Assembly (NCBI GenBank): GCA_934526185.1 | Contig: CAKTAA010000003.1 | Coordinates: 2,950 to 66,949 of the forward strand | DNA length: 64,000 bases | Direction of reading: 5' to 3' | Origin: an uncultured Eubacteriales bacterium | GTDB taxonomy: Bacteria > Bacillota > Clostridia > Oscillospirales > CAG-272 | Shown: positions 5,766 to 59,323 of the stretch, piece after piece | Layout: each line of letters opens with the position of its first letter | Position numbering within the stretch: position 1 is the stretch's first letter | Notes under the pieces: model-generated | What the model was told of the DNA's origin: nothing | Database searches by the model: none | Seen by the model: the letters and a program-made list of their open reading frames with translations, nothing else | Position numbers and translations under genes: made by a program

Positions 5766-5887
5766 ATTTACGACCATAGCTTTTATAAACCAAAAGCATC
5801 CTTTCTACAAAGTAATTTTATTTTGCGAAATAAAAAATTTGCATCGGCATGAAATGCAGTATACTCTTTGCATCAATGAAAATAATA

Positions 5888-5922
5888 TAAAAACGCATGC
5901 GCCGAGATACCGGCGCATGCGT
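5888..5922 (-). terminator. Rho-independent terminator downstream of paralog C
   Basis: 12-bp perfect stem ACGCATGCGCCG/CGGCGCATGCGT (5893-5922), followed on the minus strand by TTTTT (plus A-run 5889-5893). Confidence 0.65.
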
Positions 5923-5975
5923 GGGATAATGTGCCGGATTGTTGTCCTGCTGAGATCCTATAGGCTGCCTGTTAA

Positions 5976-7325: not shown

Positions 7326-7513
7326 CCCCCCTGCTAATATGCATTAGCATCTCGGCATGAAAATCTATATTTTTCCTGCTGAAAAGAATCAGGATGTTTC
7401 GCGGTCCGAATCAGTCAGTGTCTGCCTCCGGCCCTACTCTTGCAGCTCGGCTGCGGAAAAAACAAACAGGAGCAAAATAGGGATGCAGACCGTGCTTCCA
7501 GCTATGTATTGCG

Positions 7514-7559
7514 AAAAAAACGCATGCAACCGAGGATGCACCCGACACATGCGTTTTTT
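7514..7559 (-). terminator. Possible bidirectional terminator downstream of paralog D
   Basis: AAAAAAACGCATG ... CATGCGTTTTTT inverted repeat (7514-7559) with a 21-nt loop. The core stem is weak. Confidence 0.35.
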
Positions 7560-7623
7560 CCGTCGATTTAACCGAAACAGATTACTGAATCAGCGTTTTT
7601 GTTCTGCCTGTCAAATATTCCGT

Positions 7624-41462: not shown

Positions 41463-41551
41463 ATGATTTTGACTCCTTTCGCCGATAAAATGAAACTGCA
41501 CGGCGCAGCATACGACGCCATTCGATCTTCCGTCCTCCGGTCCGGCGTCGT

Positions 41552-42382: not shown

Positions 42383-42633
42383 GCGTCGATATACCCTCGG
42401 ACAAGAGAGGCAAATGAGGCAATGTCGCGTATCTTATCCATATTCAAATCGCTGTCGTCGATTTCAATATCATACGCCTCTTCAATTTCTACAAGAATGG
42501 ACAGTGCCAAAATGGAGTCGATTCCAAGCGCCAGCAGCGGCGTGTCATAGGCAAGCGCCTCCGCCTTGCTCTTATCCTTCATTCGGGACGCAATGATCTG
42601 CTTTACCTTTTCCTCTACCGTGTTGTTCTGCAT
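42379..42633 (-). CDS. Acyl carrier protein
   Basis: 84 aa, acidic. Phosphopantetheine attachment motif LGIDSILALSILVEIEEAY. GAGAGGAG RBS. The stop overlaps the NHL gene start as ATGA. Confidence 0.8.
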   Translation of the reverse strand: MQNNTVEEKVKQIIASRMKDKSKAEALAYDTPLLALGIDSILALSILVEIEEAYDIEIDDSDLNMDKIRDIASFASLVRGYIDA

Positions 42634-42651
42634 ACAGCATGCTCCTCTCTT

Positions 42652-44241: not shown

Positions 44242-44275
44242 ACAGGATTTTCCTCCAAATAAAAACAGGCTGCCG

Positions 44276-45655
44276 TTACGATTTTACAGCATTTTGGCGC
44301 ATGCCGCCTACAAAATTTTCCATCCCCGGAGAAAGGCGCCTTGTCCCGAAGAAAGCAAGCGAGCGATTGATCTTCCGCCGCAGCTTCTCCGAAATCCACG
44401 GTGTCTGAATTTTATCATAGGTAAACGACGCCCATCCCTCAAGCGACTGCGGAAAACGCATCCCGTAAGCCTGAGCCGTCTCGTACAGCGGCGTCCCTAA
44501 ATACGGTGAAAAAGCGAACAGGAGAATTTCCGCCTGAGGACAAACCGCGCGCACCTCACTGATGAGGGCAAGCGTGTTCTCCGTGTCTTTTTCCGGATTC
44601 CAGGGAAACCCGACCATGAAGGACAGCGTCGGCCGGACGCCAAACGACACGCAGCGCCGCACAAGCTCAAGAACCTCCCCGTTGGTATGGCGCTTGTTCA
44701 GATGCCTGAGCACATCGGCATCTCCGGATTCCACGCCCGCGATAACCCGGTAAAATCCGCTGTCCGTCAGCGCCTTCAGCTCCTGATGCGTAAACTTTAA
44801 AAACTGCCGGACAGCGGAGGCGCCGTCCCACCTGAGCTCCAGACAGCCCGCCCGCAGCATTTCGGAAAATTTCAGAGCTCGCTCCCGATCTACGAAAAAA
44901 TTGTTGTCAAAGAAGTGAACGGCGTCTATATCATACTGTTCCTTCAGGTATTTCAGATCCCAGTACACGTTCTCACACCCCAGCCCCTGCCAGCGCCTTT
45001 TGAACACAGCGCCGATAGAGCAAAACGTACAGGCATACGGACATCCGCGGCTCGACTCGTATCCGAGAATCCTCCGGTTTCCCCACCCTTCATGTATATA
45101 TTCAGGCATCCGGAGATAGCGGTATCCCCCGCGCATGCTCTTCGGAATCGGCATCCGCTCCGTTTTTTCTGTCTTTCCGATGATGATCCCGCCTTCCGGC
45201 AATTTGTAAGCCACACCCGGCATATCGAAAGGCTCCTCGCCCCGCTTCAGCCTGTCCAACAAGCGCGGAAGGATCCTCTCTCCCTGACCGATGACAACAA
45301 TATCCACAAGCGTATGCATAAGTGTTTCACCAGGCATCAGACTCGGGTGCCAACCGCCCCAGATCAGTCTGATTTCCGGCGCAAGATCTCTTACCCGCCG
45401 GGCAAAGCGCAGGCCGTTGGTAATCTGAGCGCTGGTTGTCGCGCTGATGCCGACGGCAAACACATCCCGCAGCCGCTCGGCAAGCTCACCGGTCTGGAAG
45501 GAACCATCCTTTAACCGTTCGTCAATAACTTCCACTTCAAACCGTGCGCCCACGGCCTCTGCAAGCGCAGCCACTGACAGAGGGATATCCGTATACAGCG
45601 GCGCCTCCGTCCCCTCGCTCTCAAACGACGGATAAAACAGCAGAACCTTATGCAT
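44276..45655 (-). CDS. B12-binding-domain radical SAM protein (paralog 2, divergent)
   Basis: Start moved to MHKVLLFYP (ATG 45655, GGAGGA upstream). SRGCPYACTFC cluster motif, HFFDNNFF. More divergent from the other five paralogs. Confidence 0.85.
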   Translation of the reverse strand: MHKVLLFYPSFESEGTEAPLYTDIPLSVAALAEAVGARFEVEVIDERLKDGSFQTGELAERLRDVFAVGISATTSAQITNGLRFARRVRDLAPEIRLIWGGWHPSLMPGETLMHTLVDIVVIGQGERILPRLLDRLKRGEEPFDMPGVAYKLPEGGIIIGKTEKTERMPIPKSMRGGYRYLRMPEYIHEGWGNRRILGYESSRGCPYACTFCSIGAVFKRRWQGLGCENVYWDLKYLKEQYDIDAVHFFDNNFFVDRERALKFSEMLRAGCLELRWDGASAVRQFLKFTHQELKALTDSGFYRVIAGVESGDADVLRHLNKRHTNGEVLELVRRCVSFGVRPTLSFMVGFPWNPEKDTENTLALISEVRAVCPQAEILLFAFSPYLGTPLYETAQAYGMRFPQSLEGWASFTYDKIQTPWISEKLRRKINRSLAFFGTRRLSPGMENFVGGMRQNAVKS

Positions 45656-45682
45656 AGAATTCCTCCAATCCATATCCTGGCT

Positions 45683-46345
45683 TTAGCAACCGACATACGG
45701 CGGCTTCTTTTCCGGGGAAAGAACTTTTTTTACCGTTCTTTCCGATAAAGAATAGTACCGAAGCAAAAGACGGGCTGTGACCGTCGACAGCATTTCAAAA
45801 TCCACAGCTCGGTTCAGCGTCACCGACTGAACATGCACAGCGTCGCTGAGAACGGTAAACAGAAGCGAAAGCGCTTCGCGTTCTCCCCGCGGCAGCTCCC
45901 GTACACCGGCGAGCACGAGCAGCTCCGCAAAGGAAGCCGAGTAGAATTGATACAGCTCACACAGTCTTTGCCGGACATAGGAATCCTCCCGATCCTTTAC
46001 CAGCTTCCACAAATCGATGTAGACGGAAAGAATCTCGGGATGCGTACCGGAGCCCAATACAAAACCGCGGGCCAGATGCGCAAGTCTTTCGGAAGGTTCC
46101 GCAGTTTTTTTCATTTCCGTCCGCAGCGCCTCCACCCAACGTACTCCGGCCGCCGCCATGGTATCCATCAGCAGCTCCTTGTCGCCTTCCGGAAAAAGTT
46201 CTGCGAGAAGGTCGGAGCTCAGGCACGCTGCCCGCGAAAGATTTCCGAGTGTCAGACCGTCCGTTCCCCGCTCTCTCAGTATCTGCAATGCTATACGGGT
46301 TATTTTCTGTTTTCTGCTGTCCATCCGCCTCATAAAAGAATCCAT
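45683..46345 (-). CDS. TetR/AcrR-family transcriptional regulator
   Basis: N-terminal HTH ITRIALQILRERGTDGLTLGNLSRAACLSSDLLAELFP, with a helical C-terminal ligand-binding-type domain. ~220 aa. Confidence 0.7.
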   Translation of the reverse strand: MDSFMRRMDSRKQKITRIALQILRERGTDGLTLGNLSRAACLSSDLLAELFPEGDKELLMDTMAAAGVRWVEALRTEMKKTAEPSERLAHLARGFVLGSGTHPEILSVYIDLWKLVKDREDSYVRQRLCELYQFYSASFAELLVLAGVRELPRGEREALSLLFTVLSDAVHVQSVTLNRAVDFEMLSTVTARLLLRYYSLSERTVKKVLSPEKKPPYVGC

Positions 46346-46429
46346 ACCTATGCAAAGACCTCCTTTTTGTTAACCGGGCGTACTTGAAAATGCCTGTTTT
46401 TTAATATCCCGGACAAACTGCCCCCAAAA

Positions 46430-47350
46430 TCACGGTTCATTCGAATTGAATTCCCGTCCGCACATCCACCTGTCAAAAAAGCCGACGACAAGCGTATCAT
46501 ACGTCTTTCCCATCACAACGCGGTTTGTCAGATGATGCGCCTTTTCCACCGTTATCAGCTTCGCCGTTTTTGGGTTCAGAAGGCTGTGCGCGTACACGGC
46601 GTCCCTATAAGGTATAATGCGATCTGTTTTGCTGTGTATCAGCAGCGTCGGAAGCGCTCTCAGACGCTTCAATCTTTCAACGGTTCGCTTCTGCATCCTC
46701 GAAAATCCGGCAACATGCAGATACAGAAAGAGAAATACCCTTCTTTCAAGGGGATTTTCGACCTGTTTATTGTTCAGAACATATCTGAAATAATCCCGGA
46801 CGAAAATCATTGGACCGCTGTCCACGGCGACCGCGCGAAGCTCGGGCAGCTCGTCCGCCGCGCTGAAGGCAACGGTCGCTCCCATGGAAAACCCGATGGC
46901 ACCGTATGGCTCCGGCATGCCGATTTCCCTGATTCTTCGGACAAACCGCTTCATATCGTCCTCCAGAGAATAACGGATTCCCCGCCGGTCGCCGCTTCCG
47001 CCGTGATTGGGATAATCAAACGCCGCAACGGCGTACCCCGCTATCAGAAGCGGCTCTATATAGGAGTATACCGAGGTTTTGGAGCCTCCGAGATAATGAC
47101 AGGCAATGATCGTGCCCTTTGCCTCACCGCGCGGAAAATACTGAATGGCCGCCAGCGAAAGGCCGTCCCGCGAAAAAAAGCGGAAACTGCGCGTTCGATA
47201 AGGAATATTCCGTATTTCCGTCGGTGCGGCTCTTTTGGGATGGCTCGTTTCTTTTACCAGACGGTATCCCCGAACAGCGCTCCGTACAGCAAAAGCAAGC
47301 ATCCCCGCCGCGGCACACAGGACAGCCGTGTATAAAATTTTCTGGATCAT
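46430..47350 (-). CDS. Membrane-anchored alpha/beta hydrolase
   Basis: N-terminal TM ILYTAVLCAAAGMLAFAV, nucleophile elbow GFSMGATVA, oxyanion-region CHYLGGSK. Its ATG overlaps the upstream gene's stop as ATGA (47347-47350). Confidence 0.75.
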   Translation of the reverse strand: MIQKILYTAVLCAAAGMLAFAVRSAVRGYRLVKETSHPKRAAPTEIRNIPYRTRSFRFFSRDGLSLAAIQYFPRGEAKGTIIACHYLGGSKTSVYSYIEPLLIAGYAVAAFDYPNHGGSGDRRGIRYSLEDDMKRFVRRIREIGMPEPYGAIGFSMGATVAFSAADELPELRAVAVDSGPMIFVRDYFRYVLNNKQVENPLERRVFLFLYLHVAGFSRMQKRTVERLKRLRALPTLLIHSKTDRIIPYRDAVYAHSLLNPKTAKLITVEKAHHLTNRVVMGKTYDTLVVGFFDRWMCGREFNSNEP

Positions 47351-48903
47351 GACAGCACCACCCGTCTGATTGCATTGTTCGCATAATCCGCGATATATAG
47401 ATAATTTTTGTCGGCCGTCACGCCGGCGGGAATATGAAAGCAGGCTTCTCGCTCATTTTTCAGGCTGTCTGTATAGCCCGCTATTCCGCAGCCTGCTGCG
47501 GTTTCAACGATGTCTTTCTGTACATGCCAGCGCCGGATGCGGTGATTCAGGGCGTCCACGATATAGAGCCACTCCTCCGCGCTGTCCAGGCAAACCCAAT
47601 ATGGCCCGTTGAGATACGCATCCGCTCCTTTTCCGCCGTCTCCGCCGAAGCCCGCCTTTCCGCAGCCGCATACCGTTTGGATTTTGCCTCCGTCCGCCAG
47701 ATTCACGCGCCGGATACGGTTGTTACCGTAATCGGCGATATACAGCATATCGCCACTGCGTGACACGCATAAGCCGTACGGCCTGTCCAGCGCCGCCTGA
47801 CCGGCGTCTCCTCCGTCCCCGCTGAATCCGAATGCACCGCTGCCCGCAACGGTTTCTATCGTCCCCTCTTTGCTGATGCGGCGGACGACGTTGTTGCCGT
47901 AATCATTTATATATACATTTCCGACACAATCAGCCGCCACGCCTCCGGGCCTGTTCATTTTTGCACGCCGTGCTTCGCTGCCGTCACCGTCATAGCCGCT
48001 GATTCCGCTGCCCGCCAAAACGGAAGCCCGTCCGTCCCTGATTTGAAGGATTCTGTGATGTCCGGTATCCGCAATGTACATCACGCCGCTTCCGCCGATG
48101 CAGACACCGCTCGGCTTGCAAAGCGCCAGCTCCAGCGGATCCGGTCGGCATTCGCCCGCCTGAATCCCGTCTGTGAAACCTATCTCATTTAAGGTATTGC
48201 CGGCGGCTGTATACAGTTTTCCGCCGGTCACTCTGACAATTCTGTGATTTGAGCGGTCGGCAAAGAGCAGAGAACCGTCTCTGTCCACAGCCACGCCGTA
48301 CGGCTCCGATATTGCCGCCCCAAACGCCCGCTCGCCGTCCCTTCCCCTTCCTTTCAGGGATCCGCCGACAACGGTAGTGCATCTTCCCTCTCCGCAAAAA
48401 ACCGTTATTTTATCCGGTTCCGCATATACAATTCGATTTCTACCCATTTTTTTCGCATTGAAAAGAGCGATCTCCGTATGTTTCAGCAAGGTAAACAAGT
48501 CCGCAGCCTGATGGCTGCCGGCCACCCCCATACTGAAGGTTATCCGAACCTTTTCGTACGGGTATGCGCCGACAAATCTGGTGCGGCGCCATTCCTCACG
48601 CAAATTTTCAAGCCGTCGGCGGACCTCTTCCTGCTCTGTCTCCCAAAGGAGAAGCAGAAATTCATCTTCTCCGCTGTACGCAGCCGATAAACCATGGATT
48701 CCGGCAAGAAAGGCAGCCATGTGCCGCAGCGTCAGGTCTCCCTGTTCCGCCCCGATTTTTTCATTCAGATTTGCAAAAAAATCAACATCCAGCAGAGCCG
48801 CCGTCATTCTTTTTTTGCCGGTGTATCCGCTCCGTATCCGTCTCTCAATCTCTTCCCGCGTCAAAATACCCGGAATAGATATTTTTCTTTCATTTTCCGG
48901 CAT
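47347..48903 (-). CDS. Degenerate GGDEF domain fused to NHL-repeat beta-propeller (paralog 2)
   Basis: LLDVDFFANLNEKIGAEQGDLTL ... YSGEDEFLLLL ... NAKKMGRN, then NHL blades (LLFADRSNHRIVRV, MYIADTGHHRILQI, VYINDYGNNVVRRI, LYIADYGNNRIRRV, LYIVDALNHRIRRW, LYIADYANNAIRRV). Start preferred at ATG 48903 (AAAGGA 7 nt upstream); the ORF extends to 48972. Confidence 0.7.
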   Translation of the reverse strand: MPENERKISIPGILTREEIERRIRSGYTGKKRMTAALLDVDFFANLNEKIGAEQGDLTLRHMAAFLAGIHGLSAAYSGEDEFLLLLWETEQEEVRRRLENLREEWRRTRFVGAYPYEKVRITFSMGVAGSHQAADLFTLLKHTEIALFNAKKMGRNRIVYAEPDKITVFCGEGRCTTVVGGSLKGRGRDGERAFGAAISEPYGVAVDRDGSLLFADRSNHRIVRVTGGKLYTAAGNTLNEIGFTDGIQAGECRPDPLELALCKPSGVCIGGSGVMYIADTGHHRILQIRDGRASVLAGSGISGYDGDGSEARRAKMNRPGGVAADCVGNVYINDYGNNVVRRISKEGTIETVAGSGAFGFSGDGGDAGQAALDRPYGLCVSRSGDMLYIADYGNNRIRRVNLADGGKIQTVCGCGKAGFGGDGGKGADAYLNGPYWVCLDSAEEWLYIVDALNHRIRRWHVQKDIVETAAGCGIAGYTDSLKNEREACFHIPAGVTADKNYLYIADYANNAIRRVVLS

Positions 48904-48978
48904 GCATCTATCCTTTCCGCCATCCCCGCAGAACAGCATGTGAATACAGTCAGGCACTTCATCATTCGGCATGTCCTC

Positions 48979-49734
48979 TCACAGCAGGCGCAGATTTTCA
49001 AGCCTGCGCATCATATCCGGATCCCTCACCGTACGGAGCAGACTCCAGGCGGAAAATTTTACTGGAATGTCCCTGTTTACAATTTTTTTTGTATTTTTAA
49101 GCGTTTCCGCCGAAAGCTCGCTCAGCCTGTCGGCAAGCAGAAGTGCCTGTTCCGCCGCCTTTGCCGTGCCGGAAATCCTGCCGGTTATTCCCATACGGCT
49201 GGCCTCCTCCGCAGAGATTCGTTCGTTGGTCAGGCAGATTCTCTTTGCGGCCGCAGCTCCGCAGGACCGGCTGATAAGTGTCAGCGTACCGTCCCCCATC
49301 AGACCGCCGTACTGCGGATCCGGCAGCCAGAGCCATGTGTCGGGCGATGCCGTCCGAAAATCACATGCCATGGCAATGGATACTGCCGAACCGATGACTG
49401 CGCCGGAAAGGGCAGCGATATAAATTTTACGGCTTTTCAGAATCGCCTTTATCAGACGATGAACCGATCTGACCGCCAGAAACACTTCTCTGCGGCATGA
49501 AAAACCGGCAGCAAGCGAACGCAAATCCAGACCGGAGGAAAAAATATCGGGAAGTCCGCTTTCCAGCACGACGCAGGAGATACAGCTCTCCCGCTCGGCT
49601 TCCAGCAGTAAGCGGCGAAGCGTCTCCAAAAAGGAGCGGTCAAACGCATTTGCTGGCAGGCGCCGCCACGTCAGTATCCGAACACGGCCCCGGGTTATTT
49701 TTTCTATTACCTTTTCGTCCATATCGATGACCAT
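48979..49734 (-). CDS. Enoyl-CoA hydratase/isomerase (crotonase) family protein
   Basis: RRLPANAFD, VVLESGLPDIFSSGLDL and GAVIGSAVSIAMACDFR fit the crotonase oxyanion-hole pattern. The ATG at 49734 (or 49722) gives the usual N-terminal length; the ORF track extends to a GTG at 49845. Confidence 0.65.
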   Translation of the reverse strand: MVIDMDEKVIEKITRGRVRILTWRRLPANAFDRSFLETLRRLLLEAERESCISCVVLESGLPDIFSSGLDLRSLAAGFSCRREVFLAVRSVHRLIKAILKSRKIYIAALSGAVIGSAVSIAMACDFRTASPDTWLWLPDPQYGGLMGDGTLTLISRSCGAAAAKRICLTNERISAEEASRMGITGRISGTAKAAEQALLLADRLSELSAETLKNTKKIVNRDIPVKFSAWSLLRTVRDPDMMRRLENLRLL

Positions 49735-49987
49735 AGCTTTCGCTTTGCGAAAGCTTCCTTTCCTGAGGAATCGGGACATGCTTGGCGGTTCAAATTCGCC
49801 AAACGCTTGTGAGAGTTTTATATAATCAAGCTTCGTGTTCTTCACTTTTTAAGGAGCAGTATTCCGTCATACGGCGTCATGAAAACCGGACGCCGCCGGA
49901 TACTGTTTTACCGATTTTTCAAACGGACGGACAACCGTTCCGGATGGTACTGACGCCTCAGATTCCGCAGAATCTTCACCGTATCCG

Positions 49988-51142
49988 TTACAGCATTTCT
50001 CCCCCTGTCTCCCCGGCTTTTCTGCGTCCGCATTTTTCGATGAAGCGAAGCAGCGGTGTTTCATCAAAGGTTCCGGAAACGACATCTGCCGCGGCATGAA
50101 AAACCGGCAGCCCGGCGGTTTGAAGACGTCTGCGCATACCGGCCGCAGTACGCGGCAGAAAGGAACACCGCCGTTGAAGAAAATTGACCGCCGCACCCGC
50201 CCCGCTCTGTTTGATGACGGCAAGAATTCTTTCTTCGCGCCTTTCCTGACGATAAAAAATATTTTCTGTAACCGTTCGGGCCAAATCCTCATAAAACGCG
50301 GAGGCCGATATCTGTCCGCCGCCGAACATCCACATTTCCTCGAACACAAAGGCGCAGCCTGTTTTACTTTCAAGCCGGCGGAGAAGATTGTTGTCATACA
50401 GCGGCACAAGCCCCATCCAGAACAGGCGGTTGTCTCCGCAGGCATGCCTCCGCGGCCGGTCCCCCGCCTCCTGATTCAACGCCTGCATCACACAGAGCGC
50501 AGACGGACGACCGAGATCGTTTTCCACACAGAAAAGCTTCAGGCATAGACCACCCGGCAGAACACCCGGCTGCCGGAGGCGCCGCGCGTCAATATCTCTT
50601 TTCAGGCCGAGCGCACGGTTATAGAAGCCGGCAGTTTCTGACACCCCCTGCCGCTGCCCGAATCGGCGAAGCAGCCACTCTCCCAGCCCGCGCAGCTCGT
50701 CGGCTGACGGATTCCCGGAAACAACAAAAAGCGGTATACCATATTTTTTGTGCAGCGCCTTGCACAGCTCAACCGCTCCCGTACACGGATACTCCGTCGC
50801 TGCTTCAGCCGACGGTTTTGGGAGCAGTCCGGCTTCAATCAGGGAAAAAAAGGCTTGCTGGTAGGAGCAGGTTCCGTCTGGGAGCAGAGCATCCGAGTTA
50901 CTGGGAATCAGACGCGCACCGGCACAAAGTCCTACGATTCTGTCGATATAAAGCACTTCCGCATCGACAAGCGCCGTAAGCGCAGACGGTATGTAATAGG
51001 TACACAATACATACGGACGCCCTTCGTAAATTTTCAGCAGCGTGTCTCTCTGTGACGCAAGGTAAACGGCCAGTGCACAGCCTTCCCCTGCCGCCGTGGC
51101 GTATCTGAGCATCATTTCCAGTCGCGTAAGAAGCTTATCCAT
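49988..51142 (-). CDS. 2-hydroxyacyl-CoA dehydratase (HGD-D) family subunit
   Basis: 384 aa. General HGD-D/BcrC-type pattern (Cys-containing blocks, YIPSALTALVDAEVLYID). Overlaps the activase gene by 8 nt. Confidence 0.65.
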   Translation of the reverse strand: MDKLLTRLEMMLRYATAAGEGCALAVYLASQRDTLLKIYEGRPYVLCTYYIPSALTALVDAEVLYIDRIVGLCAGARLIPSNSDALLPDGTCSYQQAFFSLIEAGLLPKPSAEAATEYPCTGAVELCKALHKKYGIPLFVVSGNPSADELRGLGEWLLRRFGQRQGVSETAGFYNRALGLKRDIDARRLRQPGVLPGGLCLKLFCVENDLGRPSALCVMQALNQEAGDRPRRHACGDNRLFWMGLVPLYDNNLLRRLESKTGCAFVFEEMWMFGGGQISASAFYEDLARTVTENIFYRQERREERILAVIKQSGAGAAVNFLQRRCSFLPRTAAGMRRRLQTAGLPVFHAAADVVSGTFDETPLLRFIEKCGRRKAGETGGEML

Positions 51143-51905
51143 AGCGCACCGCCATCACCGCCGCGCCCAGTGCCCCCGTTATCTGCGGCTCAAAGGGTAT
51201 TTTCAGTGCCGGATATTTTTTGCAAAAGCAGTCGGCAACCGCGCCGTTTTTGGCCACGCCTCCCGTAAGCACCAAAGTGCAGCCGTCCGGAATGTTTCCG
51301 GCCAGTGCGAGAATGCGCCCTGCTATGGACTGACAGATTCCCGCAGCAATATCCTCGCGTCCGACACCCTTCGAGATGCCGGAGATTACCTCGCTCTCCG
51401 CAAATACCGTACAGGTACTGCTGATCGGATATGGCTTTTCCGCCCGCCTCGCACATTCGGAAAAAGCGTCAAGATCCATCTTCATCACGCCGGCCATCAC
51501 TTCAAGAAAGCGCCCTGTCCCTGCCGCACACCGATCGTTCATGGCAAAGCTTTTAACTGTTCCGTCGTCAGACAGCCGAATAACCTTGCTGTCCTGTCCC
51601 CCGATATCGATAATGCACCCAGCATTCGGAAACAGGTACCGGACGCCCGCCGCATGACAGGTAATTTCCGTCAAACTGCGGGCGCCTTCAATATTGCCTC
51701 GGCCGTATCCGGTTCCGACAGTACCGCCTATCTCCCGCTCATCCACCCCTGCCCGTTCGCAAAGGCGGCGCGTAAGCTCACGCGCAGTCTGCGCATGGCT
51801 GTATCCGCTTGATTGTGTGAGATAGGATACAGGACGCCCCGCACTGTCCGTCAATACGGCATTTGCGGAAACGGAACCAATATCGATTCCCAAATAGTAC
51901 TTCAT
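51135..51905 (-). CDS. Acyl-CoA dehydratase activase (BcrAD/BadFG/HgdC-type ATPase)
   Basis: YLGIDIGSVSANAVL (ASKHA phosphate-1), NDRCAAGTGRFLEVMA (cluster-bridging Cys region), LTGGVAKN. 256 aa as for HgdC/HadI. Confidence 0.85.
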   Translation of the reverse strand: MKYYLGIDIGSVSANAVLTDSAGRPVSYLTQSSGYSHAQTARELTRRLCERAGVDEREIGGTVGTGYGRGNIEGARSLTEITCHAAGVRYLFPNAGCIIDIGGQDSKVIRLSDDGTVKSFAMNDRCAAGTGRFLEVMAGVMKMDLDAFSECARRAEKPYPISSTCTVFAESEVISGISKGVGREDIAAGICQSIAGRILALAGNIPDGCTLVLTGGVAKNGAVADCFCKKYPALKIPFEPQITGALGAAVMAVRYG

Positions 51906-53104
51906 AACCGATTCTCCAGACTTTCTGAAAATGCGTCCATGCGGAGCTTCATCTGCTGTGCCGAAACGCCTCCCGGATCGATGCAGTCGCCGTACAGCTC
52001 AAGACAGGGCAAGCCCTGCCGTACGCAAAGCTCTTTCAGTTCCCATGCCGCGCCCGGTATGGCACGGCATCCCTGATGCATGAAGATGACTGCGGCCTCT
52101 ATGTTCATCTCGCGTATGATTTTATTGTAAAGCGTCGGTTTGCCGCCTGAATGACCGAGAAGAAAGTGTGACATTACCTTCTGTGCAATTGAAGAGAGCG
52201 GACGCCTCTCGTCAAGCGGCTCCCAATAGATATATCCGGTCATGTCAAATGCGACGGCACATTTGAGCGTCTGCTCAAAATATCGGAGAAGCTCCCCCGA
52301 AAACAGCGGTGCGAAGTGTACCCACAGCAGTCTGTGGTACTTTCCGGGCATCGGCACCCGGCTCTCCAGCTCCTCCCTGTACGCCCGCGCAATACGGGCT
52401 CCTTCGGCGGAACCAAGCAGAAAGGTCAAGCCGAACAGATTGCGCAGCGCCAAATTGCCGCAAAAAAGAAGATTTTGGCTCCGCATACAGTTTGCGCGTA
52501 CAAGCTCGTCTCTCGCTTCGTTTGAAAGATGCACGGCTTCCTCCAGCTCCGCGCGTCCAAAGCTCCTGCCCATTCTTCTCAGAAAAAAGCCGCACAGCTT
52601 CGCAAGCCTTTTCCGCATCAGCCGTCTGTTCTCCGGCGTATCAAGATACGGCACTTCCAAGAGAAACACCTCGGTTCCGTGCCGCTCCCGCAGATACCGC
52701 GCCATCGCTGTTCCGCCGTCACATATATGCGAGGAAAGAACCGCCGTTTTCGGCGGAGGCAGCATGCCGCTCTCCAGAGCCCCTATCACCGCCTTGTGAT
52801 AGGAGCAGACACCCACAGGAAACCCCGCTGAGTGCGCGTATGCAATCTGACCGGCAGCCAGCCCCAGCGTCGACATCCAGCCCGACATAAGCTCTATGTG
52901 AACAGGAATGCATCCGGCGGCATACAGCAGCTCTGTCGGCATGACCATATTGGTCCAAACAACGGACTCCGTTTTTTTCCACACCGTGTCGGAAAACAGT
53001 CTGCTCTGATAGCTGACGAGCAGGCGCGCGGCATTCAGCTCCATCTGTGCGGAGGCGCCTCCCGCCAGCCGCATCCGCTGTCTCCATATTTCTGCGGTCG
53101 TCAC
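51902..53104 (-). CDS. 2-hydroxyacyl-CoA dehydratase (HGD-D) family subunit
   Basis: VVWTNMVMPTELLYAAGCIPV and later Cys blocks are typical of HgdA/HadB-like subunits. Likely GTG start at 53104 (AAGAGGA 5 nt upstream); the ORF extends to 53182. The stop overlaps the activase start as ATGA. Confidence 0.65.
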   Translation of the reverse strand: MTTAEIWRQRMRLAGGASAQMELNAARLLVSYQSRLFSDTVWKKTESVVWTNMVMPTELLYAAGCIPVHIELMSGWMSTLGLAAGQIAYAHSAGFPVGVCSYHKAVIGALESGMLPPPKTAVLSSHICDGGTAMARYLRERHGTEVFLLEVPYLDTPENRRLMRKRLAKLCGFFLRRMGRSFGRAELEEAVHLSNEARDELVRANCMRSQNLLFCGNLALRNLFGLTFLLGSAEGARIARAYREELESRVPMPGKYHRLLWVHFAPLFSGELLRYFEQTLKCAVAFDMTGYIYWEPLDERRPLSSIAQKVMSHFLLGHSGGKPTLYNKIIREMNIEAAVIFMHQGCRAIPGAAWELKELCVRQGLPCLELYGDCIDPGGVSAQQMKLRMDAFSESLENRL

Positions 53105-53284
53105 AACAGTCCTCTTTCTCCGGTTTCTCCGGCATTTTTTCCCGGTTGTATGTATGCAGCGTTTTGATCGTCCGGCAAACATCCAAGGCGGATAATTTTT
53201 GAAGCTTGTCTGTCCGAGCTTTTGCAGAAACGGCAGCTCTTTTTACAGCAGCAATTTATGCCCGGCTTTCTGCGATTTGAGCTT

Positions 53285-54253
53285 TTACGGCATCCCGCCG
53301 AATCGCAGACATTCCGCAAAGGCCTCCAGACGGAGACGGCTGTGTGCAGATATCCTCTGCGGAAACGACTCCTCCAGCACCAAAAGTCTTTTTTCCTCGT
53401 TTTCACACAGCCGTGCGACAGCGGGTGCGGAAAACATACTGAAATCACAGTGTCTGGACACAATACAAATGACAGCCCGGGCATTCCGGATTAGCTCTCT
53501 TGCGTACGCTTCATAAAAAAGCATCCGCGGGCAAGCGGGAGCTCTCCCGCCGTTCAGAACTGCGTCGCCGCGGTTCGTTTGAAAGCAGGTATTGAAAGCA
53601 AGCGTCTCTTCTCCGAAAAGCTTCCGCATCTCCTCCGCATAATTCTGCGGAAGAGCGGAGGCCAGCACGAGAATTTCTTTTCCGGAAAGCTTTTCGCCGC
53701 GGTTTTCGCAGGAAAAAAAACTGTACAGGCTCTGGTCCCCCGATATCCGGACACGAAAGGTTACCCGCTCCTTAGGCTGAATACCTTCTGCCGCACCCAC
53801 AGGTCTTTGCGTTTTTCTAATCAGCAAACGCGGCTGTTTCCTGCATACTGTACCGTAATTTTCCGCCGTGCGGGGCGTGCGGCCGCCCGGCGTAGCTACG
53901 GAAAGCTCCTGTGGGATTCCGAATCTGCTCGCCAGAGAGTCAAACATTTCGGATGCATTTGTCATCGACGCGTCATAGCCGGATACCTCCAGCATAAAAA
54001 TAAAGATATCCGGAGCCAGCAGGCGGATTCTGTCATACAGCCGCTGGCTCCCGCTGCAGCAGTTGGTCAGAAGGACGCCGTCATATGCCGTAAAGTCAAT
54101 TTTTTCGCCGTGGAGAACATAACCGCACAGATTCTGGGGAAATACGCCGTACTCCCGTCCCTCCGCGGCGTCAGAGGCGCAGATCATTTCGTATCCCATG
54201 CGGCGCAGCGTCCCGTGAGGGACAAAGGAGCAGAAATATAACAGTTTTGGCAT
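53285..54253 (-). CDS. HGD-D-family-related protein (third, shorter subunit)
   Basis: 322 aa. MPKLLYFCSFVPHGTLRRMGYE and LLTNCCSGSQRLYD resemble the N-terminal and Cys motifs of HGD-D proteins. GAGAGGA RBS. The assignment is tentative. Confidence 0.45.
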   Translation of the reverse strand: MPKLLYFCSFVPHGTLRRMGYEMICASDAAEGREYGVFPQNLCGYVLHGEKIDFTAYDGVLLTNCCSGSQRLYDRIRLLAPDIFIFMLEVSGYDASMTNASEMFDSLASRFGIPQELSVATPGGRTPRTAENYGTVCRKQPRLLIRKTQRPVGAAEGIQPKERVTFRVRISGDQSLYSFFSCENRGEKLSGKEILVLASALPQNYAEEMRKLFGEETLAFNTCFQTNRGDAVLNGGRAPACPRMLFYEAYARELIRNARAVICIVSRHCDFSMFSAPAVARLCENEEKRLLVLEESFPQRISAHSRLRLEAFAECLRFGGMP

Positions 54254-54470
54254 CGGCGTTTTCCTCTCATTAAAATTTCACTTACGGAGCTGTCTCTTGT
54301 GTTTCTGCGCTTTCTGATAAAGTCCGCATTTCCCTGTTTAAAATCAGGTTGAAAAATGATGCTGCCAATGGTATACCGTACATAGCAGACTAAACGGCTG
54401 AACTTCAAGATGAGGAAATCTCACGCCGAATGATGTGAAATTTCCGTTCGTATAGAAGCAGGACTGGTCC

Positions 54471-54577
54471 GACGCAGCGTTTCTCGCCGCGTAAGTCAGT
54501 ACAGGTTTCAATCATGTTCAAGTTTTGCGACCGAAGGGGAGCAAAATCTTGTAGACGCAGCGTTTCTCGCTGCGTAA
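54471..54577 (+). repeat. Two copies of a 24-nt hairpin-forming direct repeat
   Basis: GACGCAGCGTTTCTCGCCGCGTAA (54471-54494) and GACGCAGCGTTTCTCGCTGCGTAA (54554-54577), 83 nt apart start to start. Each folds as ACGCAGCG-TTTCT-CGCTGCGT; copy 1 has one mismatch. Confidence 0.6.
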
Positions 54578-54684
54578 ACGTTCAGTCAAAATCCGCAACG
54601 GAAAGAAATGAAAAATACAGTACACGGGAAATTGGTAGGGTTATCGTACAGCAGCCCTCAAAAATACGGAGGATATACAGTCTC

Positions 54685-55112
54685 ATGCTTTTGAATTACA
54701 GAAACTTATCCGTCAGAAATGCTTCACCGGATGATGCCGTACAATTGGCGGCGCGGCGGTATGACGGAACCGTTATGGCTCATGCCGGTTTTCCGCGGGG
54801 ACTAAATCAGACGGCGGAGGAACGGCAGAAATAGGTTTCAAGATCTGCGATTTTTTAATACACGGCAAGGGGTTTTGCAAAATACTGCTCAGTATGCTCA
54901 TATCGTCTCTGTTTCGCAATATGGGATATGACAAAATCTTTATTAATATAAATGCAGAAAACAAAAGACCTCAGCACGTATACGAAAGGCTTGGATTCCG
55001 GAAAATACGAAGCCGGGAAAACTCGCGGAAAAACCAGCTTGGCGAGCTGCAGTCGTCTGTCGATTACGAATTGTGTCGCGAAAACTTTTTAAGCTTTGTA
55101 AATGAATTCTGA
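54685..55112 (+). pseudogene. GNAT-family N-acetyltransferase remnant (internally deleted or frameshifted)
   Basis: N-terminal piece MLLNYRNLSVRNASPDDAVQL..GTVMAHAGFPRGL (54685-54834, stop). C-terminal piece ..MGYDKIFININAENKRPQHVYERLGFRKI.. (54894-55112). It lacks the central acetyl-CoA-binding region. It is the only plus-strand coding remnant inside the minus-strand cluster. Confidence 0.55.
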
Positions 55113-55214
55113 TGAAAGAACGGACTGTCAAGATGCTTTCCGGCATACCAGTCAGTCGTCGCCGGCAGTTTCCACATGATTTCACCGCGGAGCGCGTAAG
55201 GGACGGAAGCTCTT

Positions 55215-56552
55215 TCAGCTTTCGTTCTTTTTCTTTACGGTACCGGTTACGCCTTTCTCATCTCTTGCTTTGAAGCCCTCGGTAAATTTCCGGATTTTCT
55301 GTCGAACGGCCTCCGGTGAGGAAAGCCGGCTGAGCAGGAGGCAGTATTTTTTGTTCAGCTCCTCCTCCGACAGACAATCATGCATTATCACCGGCTGATA
55401 AATGGTATAGTCGTTCCAATCGTAGGATGTCAGCCGGCGGCTGCGGTGCATCCTCTCGAAAAGCGGAGTGCCGGGGTACGGCGTCGCCATGGTTATGCTG
55501 GCGGCAAAAAGCCCAGTTCGGCTGATAAATTCCTCCAGCTGCTCAAAGACCTGCGGCGGATCGTCAGGCCATCCGACAATGAAGCTCCCGGTAACGCCGA
55601 TCCCCTCATCCTGTATTCTCTGAATCATTTCGCCGTATCTGTCAGCGAAACGCGCTTTCAGGCCGCTGGGTTCCACCTGTTCCAGCAGATCTCTCCGTAT
55701 GCCTTCAAAACCGATTAGAACCTGTGAAAGTCCGCTCCGGCGCGCCTCGCGGATGTTTTCACGCTCCGCCGCAAAAGAGATATCTGTGTTTGCATACCAA
55801 GAAAAGCCGCTCTCTCTCATAACATCGGCCAGCATGTGAAAATGCGCGGGATCGCTGTAAATGTTGTCGTCGGTTATATAAATCCGGCCCGCTCCCCGCA
55901 GCCCATTAATTGCCTGTAGCTCTCTTTCGAGCTGTTCTGCATTTTTTTTGCGGAATACATCGCCGTACAGACCGCGGACATTGCAGAAGCTGCACCGGTT
56001 GCTGCACCCGCGCGAGGACTGCACGGGTATCAGCTTTCTCTCCTCCTCCGACAACAGGGAAAATAGCGGAACAGGAGAGGCGCAGAGATTTACAGTCCCC
56101 ATAGGCTGTTCATAGCACTTTTCGGGACATCCGCGCGCAAAATCCCGCAGGAAACGCCGGAATATAAGCTCCCCTTCTCCGAGCATCAGTGTGTCGGCGT
56201 GCCGCGCCGCCTCCTTCGGCATCGCTTTGGCGTGAACGCCTCCGATGACAACATGCGCTCCCCGCCGCCGGTATTCGTCAGCCAGCGCATACGCACGTCT
56301 GGCATTGGGCGTGACAGTATACAAGCTTATGACATCGTACGTTCCTTCCGGTAGAGAACAGAATGCCTCATCTGCCGTCTCAGGCTCATACCCCTCCTGC
56401 TCCGCGATAGCTGCCAGAAGGAAGAGCGCCGGCGTTGCGACGCGCCAGCGGCTGCCAAGCAACCGTTTCTCCTCATCTTCGAAGGAACGGTTGAGCACAA
56501 AATCACCGCGCGGGCCCGGCATTGCCGGCGCTGCAAGCAAGATTCTCTTCAC
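55215..56552 (-). CDS. B12-binding-domain radical SAM protein (paralog 3)
   Basis: GTG start at 56552 (VKRILLAAP matches paralog N-termini). HVVIGGVHAKAMPKEAARHADTLMLGEGE, SRGCSNRCSFC, IYITDDNIY. C-terminal block RRLTSYDWNDYTIYQPVI is shared with paralogs 1 and 4-6. Confidence 0.85.
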   Translation of the reverse strand: MKRILLAAPAMPGPRGDFVLNRSFEDEEKRLLGSRWRVATPALFLLAAIAEQEGYEPETADEAFCSLPEGTYDVISLYTVTPNARRAYALADEYRRRGAHVVIGGVHAKAMPKEAARHADTLMLGEGELIFRRFLRDFARGCPEKCYEQPMGTVNLCASPVPLFSLLSEEERKLIPVQSSRGCSNRCSFCNVRGLYGDVFRKKNAEQLERELQAINGLRGAGRIYITDDNIYSDPAHFHMLADVMRESGFSWYANTDISFAAERENIREARRSGLSQVLIGFEGIRRDLLEQVEPSGLKARFADRYGEMIQRIQDEGIGVTGSFIVGWPDDPPQVFEQLEEFISRTGLFAASITMATPYPGTPLFERMHRSRRLTSYDWNDYTIYQPVIMHDCLSEEELNKKYCLLLSRLSSPEAVRQKIRKFTEGFKARDEKGVTGTVKKKNES

Positions 56553-57864
56553 TGTTTTTCACCCTGTTCCGATTCAGATTTTTAAAGTACAGCAGCCTGT
56601 CCCGCGCCGCCTGCGGTGAATAGATCTGACGAAGTGCCTCGCCAAAGCCTCTTTCCAACTCGTCCACCCGCATTTTTGCAGGCTCCACCACCACATTCCA
56701 AAGCGTATAGCTCCCCCAATGTCTGCTCAGAATTCTTCCGTCGGTTTCCAGCCGGCGATAAAGCTCAGAACCGGGAAACGGCGTCGGCACAGACAGCATC
56801 GCACCGTACAGGTGATTTTCCAGAGTAAAATCCACAATCCGCTGAAAAACACCGGTATCATCGCCGTCCAATCCCAAAATGAAGGTTCCCCATACGCCGA
56901 TGCCGTAGGACTGAATGATGGATATTGCCTCGGCATATCCGGAAAGCTGTTCATATTTCCACTTTTCCATTTCACGAAGCGATGCCGGCTCAATGCTCTC
57001 AAAGCCGATCACCAGCTTCCGGCAGCCGGACGCATGCAGAAGCTTCAGAAGCTCCGGCTTGTAGGCCAGACTGATATCCGTATGGGACATCCAGCGAATG
57101 CCGGCCGATGCAAGCTCGCGCAGAAGCGTTTGCGAAAACTTTTTGTCTACCAGCATGTTGTCATCCGTAAAATAGACATGCGGCCTTTCCTTCATTGATT
57201 TGATCGTTTCCAGCTCGGAGAGTACCTGCTCCACGCCTTTGTGGCGGTATTTCGGTCCGTAGACCTTCGTGGAAGCGCAGAACGCGCAGTTGTGCGGACA
57301 GCCGCGGGATATCTGAACCGGAACCGTTCTGTATTTCGCCATATCCAGCAGGCCGTAAAGCGGCGTCGGGCTCTGTGCAAGATCGATGAGCTCCGTATTC
57401 CTGTAAAAACGGTCCGGCCTTCCGTTTCGGCAGTCCGAAAGAAATTTCGGCCATGTTTTCTCGCCCTCACCGATGAAAACGGTATCAAAATGCTCCGCCG
57501 CTTCCTCCGGCAGGTTTGTAGGATGCATGCCGCCGCATACGGTATAAATGCCGCGCGAACGGAAAAAATCGGAGAGCTCATAGGCACGCGTTGCCTGCTG
57601 CGTCATAAAAGACATCCCCACCATGTCGCAGGCAACCGAAAGATCCGTCTCCTGCGTCTCCTCGTCGATGTAGGATATTTCATTGAAATACGGGGCGGCA
57701 ATGGCCGCAACGGTCAGCAGCGGGGCGTTCGGGCAGGACATTAGCTCACGCAGCGAATCGATCTGACTTAAGCTGTCGTATAGCTGCCGGGTACGCAGAT
57801 TCTCCGCGGAGCGGCCCATCCCGACGCCGCGCGGAGACAGCAGAACAAGTTTATTCAACTTCAT
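56503..57864 (-). CDS. B12-binding-domain radical SAM protein (paralog 4)
   Basis: MKLNKLVLLSP, TVCGGMHPTNLPEEAAEHFDTVFIGEGE, SRGCPHNCAFC, VYFTDDNML, GRILSRHWGSYTLWNVVVEP. The 3' end overlaps paralog 3 by 50 nt. Confidence 0.85.
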   Translation of the reverse strand: MKLNKLVLLSPRGVGMGRSAENLRTRQLYDSLSQIDSLRELMSCPNAPLLTVAAIAAPYFNEISYIDEETQETDLSVACDMVGMSFMTQQATRAYELSDFFRSRGIYTVCGGMHPTNLPEEAAEHFDTVFIGEGEKTWPKFLSDCRNGRPDRFYRNTELIDLAQSPTPLYGLLDMAKYRTVPVQISRGCPHNCAFCASTKVYGPKYRHKGVEQVLSELETIKSMKERPHVYFTDDNMLVDKKFSQTLLRELASAGIRWMSHTDISLAYKPELLKLLHASGCRKLVIGFESIEPASLREMEKWKYEQLSGYAEAISIIQSYGIGVWGTFILGLDGDDTGVFQRIVDFTLENHLYGAMLSVPTPFPGSELYRRLETDGRILSRHWGSYTLWNVVVEPAKMRVDELERGFGEALRQIYSPQAARDRLLYFKNLNRNRVKNSEENLACSAGNAGPAR

Positions 57865-57985: not shown

Positions 57986-59323
57986 TTAAACATTTTTATT
58001 CGCTGCAGCCCCTGCCCTGCGGTTATTGCGCAGATTTCTGCGGAGGGACGCCATCCGGTATGCCGCCGCCTCGGTGTTGTAAAATTTATCATAGATCCAC
58101 GCGACCCCCCTCATAAGCTCATCCGCCGTCATATGCTTCGGACGGTAAACGACGTCCCAGAACGTGTACCGGCTCCAGTCATAATCCGCAATCCGTCCGG
58201 CAGCTTCCATCTCACAGAATAGCTGTGTGCCCGGCAGCGGCGTCAGAATCGTGAAGCTGCCGGAATAAATACCGTTGCTCTGGACAAATTCCAGCACTTT
58301 TTCGAACACATCCGCGCCGTCCTCGTCTGTGCCGAACAGAAAGGATCCCCATATCTGTACACCCGCCGCCTGTATGTTTGCCGTCAGCCGCTCATAGCGC
58401 TGCGACATTCCCGCTTTCCATTTGTTTTTATCAAGCGTAGCCAGGCTGCCGCCGGATGGATTTTCAAAGCCGATAAAGAGCCACCGGCAGCCAGCGTCCC
58501 GGAGCAGCGCCAGAATTTCCGGCTCTTCTCCAACGGAAATATCCGTCTGCGTCCCCCAGTAGATTTCCTCGTCCCGAAGCAGACGGAGCAGCTTCAGAGC
58601 GCTGTCCCTGCGGATAAACATATTATCATCCGCAAAGAATACAAACGGTGCAGCCGTGACACGCTTAATCGCCCGGAGCTCCTTTATGACCTGCTCCGCC
58701 GTTTTGTGCCGGTAACGGGAGCCGTAGATAACCGGCAGCGTACAGTAAGAGCAGGTTCGGGGACATCCCCGCGTCGTCTGCAGACTGTAGGAGCCGTAAA
58801 GCGAAGGGTTCAAAAGATCGTAACGCGGTACGGGAGACAGTCTCAGATTCGTCAGCCGTTCGGCTCTGTAAACTCTTTTCGGCGAGCCGGCTTCAAAATC
58901 CGTGAGAAACCGAAACAGTGTTTCCTCGCCCTCTCCGCACATAACGGTATCCGCATAATGCAGCGCCTCCTCACACAGCATGGAGGCATGTATGCCGCCC
59001 ATCACGGTATAACACCCCCGTTCTCTAAACCTCTTGCAGATCTCGTAAGCGCGCGGCGCCTGCTGCGTCATGCCCGTCACCGCTGCCAGTGTAAAATCCT
59101 CATCGAACGGAATCTCCTCGCCGTGATCCTCGTCGATAAACCGAAGCTCATACGACGGAGGAAACAGCGCCGCAAGTGTCAGCAGACTGAGGTTCGGCGT
59201 TTCCCACGCTCCGTAAAACGTCGGAACAACCGTGTTGCTCTCCATAAATGACTTCATATATGGATTTTTACCGTATTTTGATCCCTTCGGTACTACCAGA
59301 GCCACCTTTGACATGGATGCCAT
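57986..59323 (-). CDS. B12-binding-domain radical SAM protein (paralog 5)
   Basis: Start moved to MASMSKVALVVP (ATG 59323, or 59314). TVMGGIHASMLCEEALHYADTVMCGEGE, TRGCPRTCSYC, VFFADDNMF, GRIADYDWSRYTFWDVVYRP. Confidence 0.8.
   Translation of the reverse strand: MASMSKVALVVPKGSKYGKNPYMKSFMESNTVVPTFYGAWETPNLSLLTLAALFPPSYELRFIDEDHGEEIPFDEDFTLAAVTGMTQQAPRAYEICKRFRERGCYTVMGGIHASMLCEEALHYADTVMCGEGEETLFRFLTDFEAGSPKRVYRAERLTNLRLSPVPRYDLLNPSLYGSYSLQTTRGCPRTCSYCTLPVIYGSRYRHKTAEQVIKELRAIKRVTAAPFVFFADDNMFIRRDSALKLLRLLRDEEIYWGTQTDISVGEEPEILALLRDAGCRWLFIGFENPSGGSLATLDKNKWKAGMSQRYERLTANIQAAGVQIWGSFLFGTDEDGADVFEKVLEFVQSNGIYSGSFTILTPLPGTQLFCEMEAAGRIADYDWSRYTFWDVVYRPKHMTADELMRGVAWIYDKFYNTEAAAYRMASLRRNLRNNRRAGAAANKNV

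Follow-up and report, generated by a model that had tools for sequence, protein, structure and literature searches.

The 64,000-nucleotide stretch of DNA analysed here (the window; contig CAKTAA010000003.1 of assembly GCA_934526185.1, from an uncultured Eubacteriales bacterium) carries on its minus strand a compact set of four genes, which encode three proteins of the HGD-D fold, called here the alpha, beta and small subunits, and one ATP-dependent activase of the BcrAD/HgdC type. A preliminary description of the same DNA had seen in these genes three subunits of a radical dehydratase together with their activase. The set is real and intact: the ATGA shared by the alpha stop and the activase start (51902-51905) and the 8-nucleotide overlap of the activase stop with the beta start (51135-51142) are both seen in the sequence, and all the ligand cysteines are invariant across homologs, which rules out decayed genes. 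The three HGD-D proteins, however, are not equivalent subunits. Profile searches and hhalign place alpha and beta with the HadB/BzdO type, whereas the small subunit belongs, by its fold and six conserved cysteines, with BzdN, DCCP and HadC.

The alpha open reading frame (ORF), 51902-53182, encodes 426 residues from its first ATG (53182), and gene callers begin the relatives' proteins at the equivalent of ATG 53074, which gives 390 residues. The true start is probably GTG 53104 (400 residues), because an AGAGGA ribosome-binding site precedes it and because the conserved N-terminal FxQRMxL motif (EIWRQRMRL in the window) lies upstream of ATG 53074. An exact-sequence look-up of the window ORF gave no match, probably because its 426-residue start differs from that of the called 390-residue gene; P0001, a protein 99% identical to the window alpha, served as a stand-in. 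Alpha matches the Pfam HGD-D family at 168 bits. Its residues C90, C118, C336 and E61 (390-residue numbering) are invariant in the homolog alignments, and in a profile comparison with the Protein Data Bank (PDB) the three cysteines align with Cys95, Cys128 and Cys380 of BzdO and E61 with Glu55 of HadB. The same comparison ranks HadB first (1.9e-20), followed by MbdO (1e-18), BzdO (1e-17) and DCCP (4e-16), with the N/beta-type subunits much weaker; the distal-subcluster cysteine positions are occupied in alpha by Thr and Tyr. As a proxy for the complex, a model was made of P0039, a homolog (~43% identical to the window alpha) in which small and alpha are naturally fused. The best Foldseek match of this model is HadB (TM score 0.85, root-mean-square deviation 2.9 Å), followed by BzdO and MbdO at 0.74-0.75, and the HadB match presumably runs through the alpha part of the model.

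Beta (HGD-D at 73 bits) has invariant residues C92, C120 and C326 in its own alignment, as well as an acidic residue in the column of HadB Glu55, which is D67 in the window and Glu in most homologs. Its profile finds HadB at 1e-14 and BzdO at 7e-8, with HadC (E 0.49) and BzdN (0.2) far behind; beta thus prefers HadB and is not an accessory subunit of the HadC type. Judged by sequence, alpha is a paralog of beta (hhalign E 1.4e-42, 19% identity) and both large subunits belong to the three-Cys, substrate-binding type. A pair of HGD-D subunits with three-Cys sites that align to the HadB/BzdO ligands is what one would look for in a dehydratase. Neither of them attains any NCBIfam equivalog cutoff: alpha scores 21.3 bits with the HadB model NF052455 (cutoff 750) and 44.8 bits with the DCCP model NF040772 (cutoff 350), and the BcrB model TIGR02260 gives 19.7 bits (cutoff 486). 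Identity to the solved dehydratases is ~15-20%, and stands at ~18% in the comparison with HadBC and the other 2-hydroxyacyl-CoA dehydratases.

The small subunit has a core of only ~260 residues, and its Pfam HGD-D match (32.1 bits against a cutoff of 28.4) spans the C-terminal 60 residues only. The AlphaFold2 model (predicted local distance difference test 79.8, predicted template modelling score, pTM, 0.75) consists of the two alpha/beta domains of the HGD-D fold, without the middle helical domain. Foldseek puts DCCP, HadC, BzdN and MbdN on top (E 5e-9 to 3e-7), before HadB and BzdO, and the family profile gives DCCP at 1e-15, HadC at 8e-13, BzdN at 4e-10 and MbdN at 2e-7, while no catalytic-type chain is matched. 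Across alignments of 21-38 homologs, C43, C65, C66, C223, C241 and C269 are invariant, and C8 is nearly so, the sole exception being an ORF with a mis-set start. In the HMMER alignment C8, C43, C66, C223, C241 and C269 fall on Cys36, Cys73, Cys100, Cys263, Cys293 and Cys327 of BzdN, respectively, so that all six positions are aligned with BzdN and five of the six with DCCP. The six BzdN residues are the ligands of its [8Fe-9S] double-cubane cluster (Fuchs et al. 2025, PMC11971306), and proteins with these six cysteines probably house a double cubane, according to Jeoung et al. (PMC7317905). Because of this coincidence of the six cysteines with the BzdN ligands, taken with the argument of the latter authors, we infer from sequence and fold that the small subunit is a minimal double-cubane-type electron relay or store. 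Neither the small subunit nor beta has an NCBIfam match, so the small subunit falls outside the DCCP model NF040772. Residues ~113-185 of the window protein form an Arg/Pro/Gly-rich insert of ~70 residues, of low model confidence and modelled as disordered. Among the related loci that were compared (28 in all, numbered with L), this insert is confined to the window clade (the window, L001 and L004), and all other small subunits have a short linker instead. When the small subunit or its profile was the query, word-indexed homolog searches gave only 4-7 proteins, and an exhaustive search of 1.84 billion representatives was then used; the family is rare, since that search gave only 17 clusters at E ≤ 1e-30.

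In 15 of the 28 loci and in ~45 of the 93 alpha homologs the small protein is fused to the N terminus of alpha, giving proteins of ~700 residues that make up about half of the alpha relatives. The model of one such fusion (P0039) has a pTM of 0.88, which suggests a defined packing of small on alpha. Seven related loci contain an additional small Cys-rich gene between activase and beta, absent from the window cluster, whose product of 235-240 residues has no Pfam match. In the Wukongibacter example the N-terminal half of this product shows homology to the small subunit (hhalign 94%), with the motifs YCPY, LC, ECCN and NCPR. A gap of ~700 nucleotides between activase and beta, equivalent to the extra gene of L018, is seen in L012, L015, L017, L019, L020 and L025. 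In some species, then, each large subunit seems to have a small module of its own.

The activase matches BcrAD_BadFG at 180 bits and exceeds the cutoff of TIGR00241 ('acyl-CoA dehydratase activase'; 211.8 bits against 125.4). Its motifs MNDRCAAGTGRF (NDRCAAGTGRF) and SSTCTVFAES contain the cluster-bridging Cys126 and Cys165, as in the HgdC-type activators of dehydratases, with their two bridging cysteines. The window and each of the related loci examined contain just one BcrAD_BadFG gene, and not the two ATPases of a class-I benzoyl-CoA reductase (BCR); because of this single copy the activase is taken to act as a homodimer. It has a single BcrAD domain, and PF09989 (DUF2229) has no match among the window proteins. 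The positions of all these genes and of their neighbours, which include enzymes of the radical S-adenosylmethionine (SAM) family and an acyl carrier protein (ACP), are collected in Table 1.

Table 1. Genes of the module and of the surrounding cluster, in window coordinates unless a related locus is named
Feature	Position	Strand	Remarks
Small HGD-D-fold subunit	53285-54253	minus	322 residues; trimmed BzdN/DCCP/HadC-type module
Alpha subunit	51902-53104	minus	HadB/BzdO-type catalytic-like HGD-D protein, ~400 residues from probable start GTG 53104
Activase	51135-51905	minus	HgdC/DCCP-R/BcrAD type, ATP-dependent, 256 residues
Beta subunit	49988-51142	minus	384 residues, alpha paralog by sequence, HadB-type
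Crotonase/enoyl-CoA hydratase-family protein	48979-49779 (ORF to 49845)	minus	ECH_1 107 bits; directly downstream of beta
B12-binding radical SAM	55215-56540	minus	Pfam Radical_SAM and B12-binding; upstream of module
B12-binding radical SAM	56503-57864	minus	Pfam Radical_SAM and B12-binding; upstream of module
B12-binding radical SAM	57986-59323	minus	Pfam Radical_SAM and B12-binding; third of tandem trio
Phosphoenolpyruvate (PEP)-utilising/PPDK_N protein	59391-61787 (or to 61823)	minus	RedH/PigC/Rph-like, ~800 residues
FabD-like acyltransferase	61888-62826	minus	
B12-binding radical SAM	62944-64000	minus	cut by window end
GGDEF-NHL protein	47347-48972	minus	
Membrane-anchored alpha/beta hydrolase	46430-47350	minus	
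TetR-like protein	45683-46345	minus	
B12-binding radical SAM	44276-45655	minus	
GGDEF-NHL protein	42652-44241	minus	
ACP	42379-42633	minus	
NHL-only protein	41552-42382	minus	
B12-binding radical SAM	40137-41813	minus	
Extra small gene of relatives	L018:11950-12672 (= L029:11995-12702)		between activase and beta

From 40137 to its end the window is a single minus-strand cluster, and the neighbours of the module named in the preliminary description (crotonase, ACP, acyltransferase and radical SAM genes) are present as claimed, the B12-binding radical SAM genes numbering six. A 99%-identical relative of the crotonase is called at 266 residues. No NCBIfam equivalog is attained by the crotonase, by any of the six radical SAM proteins, by the hydrolase or by the NHL protein, and the radical SAM scores lie far under the cutoffs; TIGR04072 ('lipid biosynthesis B12/rSAM') gives weak matches, with all radical SAM scores far under its cutoff. 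When every window protein was compared by tblastn with the 28 related loci, a conserved order emerged: radical SAM, radical SAM, small, alpha, activase, beta, crotonase, GGDEF-NHL, hydrolase, radical SAM, acyltransferase. Most relatives add a ketoreductase (KR) gene after the crotonase. The crotonase lies next to beta in 24 of the 28 loci, the exceptions being mostly short fragments; synteny of the two radical SAM genes closest to the small subunit extends to almost every relative; and L001, L002, L004 and L009 share the window's gene order throughout 40137-48972. Further upstream, beyond the radical SAM gene at which the window ends, annotated relatives have two or three ketosynthases (KS), one of them resembling a chain-length factor (CLF), an ACP and an ApeI/ApeP-like FabA dehydratase, and their clusters include five to seven B12-radical-SAM enzymes. 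By this fixed order, and by the ketosynthase, ACP and dehydratase genes of the relatives, the module is a constant part of a radical-SAM-rich cluster resembling type-II fatty acid synthase (FAS) or polyketide synthase (PKS) systems, which is carried by Firmicutes of gut and soil.

The 93 alpha relatives were detected in a collection of 5.8 billion proteins, those with a name coming from Clostridia, Paenibacillus and Pelosinus. When each species was represented by a single genome, a scan gave 25 loci, nearly all from Bacillota, in human-gut metagenome-assembled genomes (MAGs) and in cultured strains, among them Bianquea renquensis, Ruminiclostridium cellobioparum DSM 1351, Lachnotalea glycerini DSM 28816, Lutispora saccharofermentans, Alkaliphilus peptidifermentans, Wukongibacter, Paenibacillus haidiansis and Pelosinus baikalensis; Vallitalea pronyensis is a further cultured strain with the cluster, found outside the species scan. 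The sole match outside the Bacillota, L023 (an Acetobacteraceae MAG, JAIMBG010000019.1), encodes an 802-residue small-alpha fusion and lacks a crotonase; its activase and beta genes are scattered over 8 kb, and it could be a horizontal transfer, a mis-binned contig or a divergent variant.

The surroundings bear directly on what the module may do. Pfam scans of the window, covering most ORFs of ≥150 residues, detected neither a CoA-transferase nor Acd/Etf nor a 2-hydroxyacid dehydrogenase, and none of these partners occurs in six annotated related loci. The absence of CoA-transferase and Acd/Etf genes pointed out in the preliminary description is thereby upheld; that of a dehydrogenase holds for the window but is a trait of its clade only, because most related clusters carry a short-chain dehydrogenase/reductase (SDR) or KR gene after the crotonase. 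A conventional 2-hydroxyacyl-CoA dehydratase of amino-acid fermentation (Hgd, Had, Fld or Lcd), with its partners encoded elsewhere in the genome, would account for HadB as the nearest relative of alpha in profile and fold, for the activase that passes the dehydratase-activase model, and for the three-Cys sites with their Glu55-equivalent acid. The module indeed has features in common with HadBC/HadI (PDB 3o3m/3o3o) and with Hgd, Fld and Lcd: the HGD-D fold, large subunits that each have a three-Cys [4Fe-4S] site, that acid, and the single HgdC-type activase gene among the subunit genes. Yet its alpha lies at 21 bits on a HadB scale that begins at 750 and is distant from the solved enzymes; it differs from HadBC in having a second HadB-type subunit, beta, where a HadC-like one would be expected, an extra six-Cys small subunit (sometimes two) and a biosynthetic context; and in ~25 species it is always found among FAS/PKS and radical SAM genes, with fermentation partners in none of the loci examined. 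The module is not orthologous to Hgd, Had, Fld or Lcd, all equivalog scores being far below the cutoffs, and a fermentation enzyme, rejected on context and scores, must be considered very improbable. An enzyme resembling PlsA/PlsR or Ger, converting ester-linked membrane lipids to vinyl-ether or alkyl-ether lipids, appears equally remote. These proteins show the superfamily at work in anaerobic lipid modification, and hence offer a functional precedent outside fermentation; the context of the module is lipid-like (ACP, acyltransferase, membrane-anchored hydrolase), and radical SAM enzymes also accompany the synthesis of membrane-spanning lipids (PMC13159169). In Ger and PlsA, however, two BcrAD domains, DUF2229 and short HGD-D segments are carried by one polypeptide or by two (PMC13159169). 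Their core of two BcrAD domains and DUF2229, called BBD, is missing here, where the cluster has chain-building enzymes of its own. The analogy with PlsAR drawn in the preliminary description therefore fails as a statement of membership.

Two further explanations turn on the six-Cys module. One is a class-I BCR-like reductase that would dearomatise an aromatic or conjugated thioester made by type-II PKS-like enzymes, the product then being hydrated by the crotonase and passed to the KR. The pairing, and often fusion, of a BzdN-like six-Cys module with a BzdO-like three-Cys subunit mirrors BzdNO, a crotonase and usually an SDR gene directly follow the module, and relatives have KS/CLF-like pairs. 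BzdNO and MbdON (PDB 8s02, 9g87; PMC11971306) likewise join a three-Cys catalytic subunit to a six-Cys one and have a crotonase downstream, but the six-Cys partner in the window, with its short core, is without the middle domain, the third, large subunit beta is extra, and the context is not catabolic. In the catalytic subunit of BzdNO, Glu65 and His131 flank the [4Fe-4S]-OH2; the acid is kept in alpha as E61, whereas the position of His131 is a Gly within an invariant CDGG motif. The module also has a single ATPase gene against two different ones in BCRs, a BcrB score of 19.7 bits against the required 486, and an alpha that is structurally closer to HadB than to BzdO or MbdO, and no aromatase or cyclase genes were seen, all of which makes a true dearomatising reductase unlikely, if far from negligible. 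The other explanation is a DCCP-like reductase of small molecules (acetylene/azide-type) that merely adjoins the cluster, or else an electron supply for the many neighbouring radical SAM enzymes, which need low-potential electrons. The small subunit bears the six-Cys signature, with DCCP as its top match in profile and fold, and the single homodimeric reductase resembles DCCP-R; DCCP/DCCP-R (PDB 6eno, 7yyl; PMC7317905) agree with the module in the order of the six ligand cysteines and in the homodimeric ATPase partner encoded by a single gene. DCCP, however, is a homodimer of 380-420 residues with a 7-Cys motif and small-molecule substrates, whereas the small subunit of the window is shorter, has lost the middle domain and stands beside, or in relatives is fused to, a HadB-like catalytic subunit. 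Moreover, alpha and beta keep the open-iron three-Cys sites and the conserved acid that are typical of substrate-binding subunits, and we know of no precedent for the reduction of radical SAM enzymes by this family. Either version of this second explanation seems quite improbable.

There remains the non-fermentative, ACP- or lipid-directed role that the preliminary description had proposed, which is the best reading because the module is embedded in an ACP/ketosynthase/radical-SAM cluster, syntenic in 24 of the 28 related loci, in which no fermentation partners were found. We put at roughly 60% the probability that the module is an ATP-driven enzyme for the injection of low-potential electrons, a member of the BCR-I/HAD ('archerase-dependent') superfamily (HAD standing for the 2-hydroxyacyl-CoA dehydratases), serving not fermentation but a type-II FAS/PKS-like pathway rich in B12-radical-SAM enzymes. 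A mechanism can be framed after the published work on the relatives (PMC11971306, PMC7317905). The activase homodimer, with one bridging [4Fe-4S] cluster, would take an electron from flavodoxin or ferredoxin, and its hydrolysis of ATP would drive this electron into the iron-sulfur core. The small subunit, without a middle helical domain for the substrate channel but with the full set of six ligand cysteines, would relay or store electrons in the manner of BzdN, while alpha, and possibly beta, would hold a three-Cys [4Fe-4S] cluster with an open iron beside the conserved acid. The thioester carbonyl of a pathway intermediate, bound at the open iron, could then be converted to a ketyl-type radical. 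The reaction would end either with the addition of two electrons to a conjugated or otherwise unreactive system or with the loss of water by radical elimination, and the adjacent crotonase (together with the KR in most relatives) would handle the product. As for the type of reaction, we would give reduction about an even chance, dehydration a little more than one chance in three and something else a small remainder. A two-electron reduction is a better fit than a redox-neutral dehydration for a double cubane that stores electrons; the resemblance of alpha to HadB, the absence of the BCR histidine and the presence of only one activase gene favour a dehydratase. The substrate is probably bound to ACP rather than to CoA, because the cluster has ACPs and an acyltransferase, has no CoA-transferase and usually has no CoA ligase. 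Two genes of related clusters, a flavodoxin (L030:783-1325; in this cluster it and a HemN-like radical SAM protein are encoded beside the ketosynthases) and a SAM synthetase at the cluster edge (L029:501-1760), fit a heavy demand for low-potential electrons and SAM.

Several points weigh against this electron-injection reading or against parts of it. The model of the small subunit is a moderate match to its templates (TM 0.55-0.61), its loops are shorter than the spacing of the published 7-Cys motif (PMC7317905), and the types of the iron-sulfur clusters in the module are deduced from the positions of the cysteines alone. The glycine at the place of BzdO His131 argues against a Birch mechanism of the BCR type, and beta is possibly catalytic, or possibly only structural. 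Should the reaction be a dehydration, this would be redox-neutral and would not need a double cubane. Crotonases usually act on CoA esters, and one relative has an AMP-binding gene at the edge of the cluster, both of which lend some weight to a CoA-bound substrate in place of an ACP-bound one. The reading as a whole is assembled entirely from genes, folds, cysteine patterns and synteny.

Other components of the cluster are unusual in their own right. The PEP-utilising/PPDK_N protein has its best matches, far sub-threshold, among the prodiginine ligases RedH/PigC and rifampicin phosphotransferase; it is found in ~7 of the 28 related loci (near relatives of the window, Vallitalea, Bianquea, Pelosinus and two MAGs) and may phosphorylate, and so activate, a carbonyl or hydroxyl group. 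Both GGDEF-NHL beta-propeller fusions and the NHL-only protein are syntenic across species; the GGDEF motif is intact in one of the fusions and reads GEDEF in the other, and there is a weak match to the NHL model of ScyF from scytonemin biosynthesis. A diguanylate-cyclase-like domain joined to an NHL propeller is an odd component of a biosynthetic cluster and may be regulatory or catalytic, for example a cyclase. Between the radical SAM genes and the small HGD-D gene the operon is broken by a gap of ~960 nucleotides (54254-55214), which contains two copies, at 54471 and 54554, of the 24-nucleotide imperfect palindrome GACGCAGCGTTTCTCGCYGCGTAA. A 72-residue ORF on the plus strand of this gap (54894-55112) resembles what is left of the C-terminal part of a GNAT/FR47 acetyltransferase and is also present in a 99%-identical MAG contig. 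The first 40,000 positions of the window (1-40000) hold housekeeping genes (ValRS, ArgRS, RNase J, KsgA, YebC, an ABC transporter and a YidC fusion). The last of these, a 721-residue ORF on the plus strand (36570-38735), unusually fuses a YidC/60KD_IMP insertase to a teichoic-acid-type CDP-glycerol glycerophosphotransferase. Four consecutive minus-strand ORFs at 3539-8976 (286, 437, 449 and 450 residues), all without a Pfam match, adjoin an SLH-domain/CBM9 cell-surface protein (1828-3156) and may represent an uncharacterised family of envelope proteins.

A bolder version of the proposal, which we hold tentatively and consider somewhat doubtful, is that the module is the first enzyme of the HAD/BCR superfamily to act in the assembly of a natural product or lipid. 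It would be a new heterotrimer (a heterotetramer in some species) in which one or two minimal [8Fe-9S] modules feed two HadB-type sites, using ATP to drive the reduction or radical dehydration of a polyunsaturated chain tethered to ACP and cooperating with five to seven B12-radical-SAM enzymes. The product would be a lipid that is extensively rearranged, by methylation or cyclisation, and the producers anaerobic Firmicutes, Clostridia of the human gut among them. The relatives' clusters resemble the type-II FAS-like clusters for aryl polyenes and, as proposed, ladderanes in their KS/CLF-like pairs, dedicated ACP, ApeI/ApeP-like dehydratase, KR and B12-radical-SAM genes. To the best of our knowledge, neither of those cluster types has an HGD-D/activase module, GGDEF-NHL proteins or five to seven class-B radical SAM genes. 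A literature search on HGD or BCR proteins together with radical SAM, ACP, polyketide, biosynthetic gene cluster or double-cubane terms found no description of the cluster or of an arrangement with three HGD-D genes, and neither a ladderane genomics paper nor a 2026 review of lipid radical SAM enzymes mentions an HGD/BCR-type component.

ATP-coupled 'archerase' enzymes carry out some of the hardest anaerobic reductions and eliminations, and the characterised examples known to us are catabolic (in fermentation and the degradation of aromatic compounds), form lipid ethers or, in the case of DCCP, have an unclear role. A variant within a chain-building cluster, if true, would extend this chemistry to biosynthesis. 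Likewise, a double-cubane module of ~260 residues, often fused to its partner, would, if real, be a handy object for studies of electron storage and transfer by [8Fe-9S] clusters. The product of the cluster is probably an unusual lipid or polyketide. As the cluster is present in cultured strains as well as in human-gut MAGs, this product is within experimental reach, and it could matter to the ecology of the gut or of sediments.

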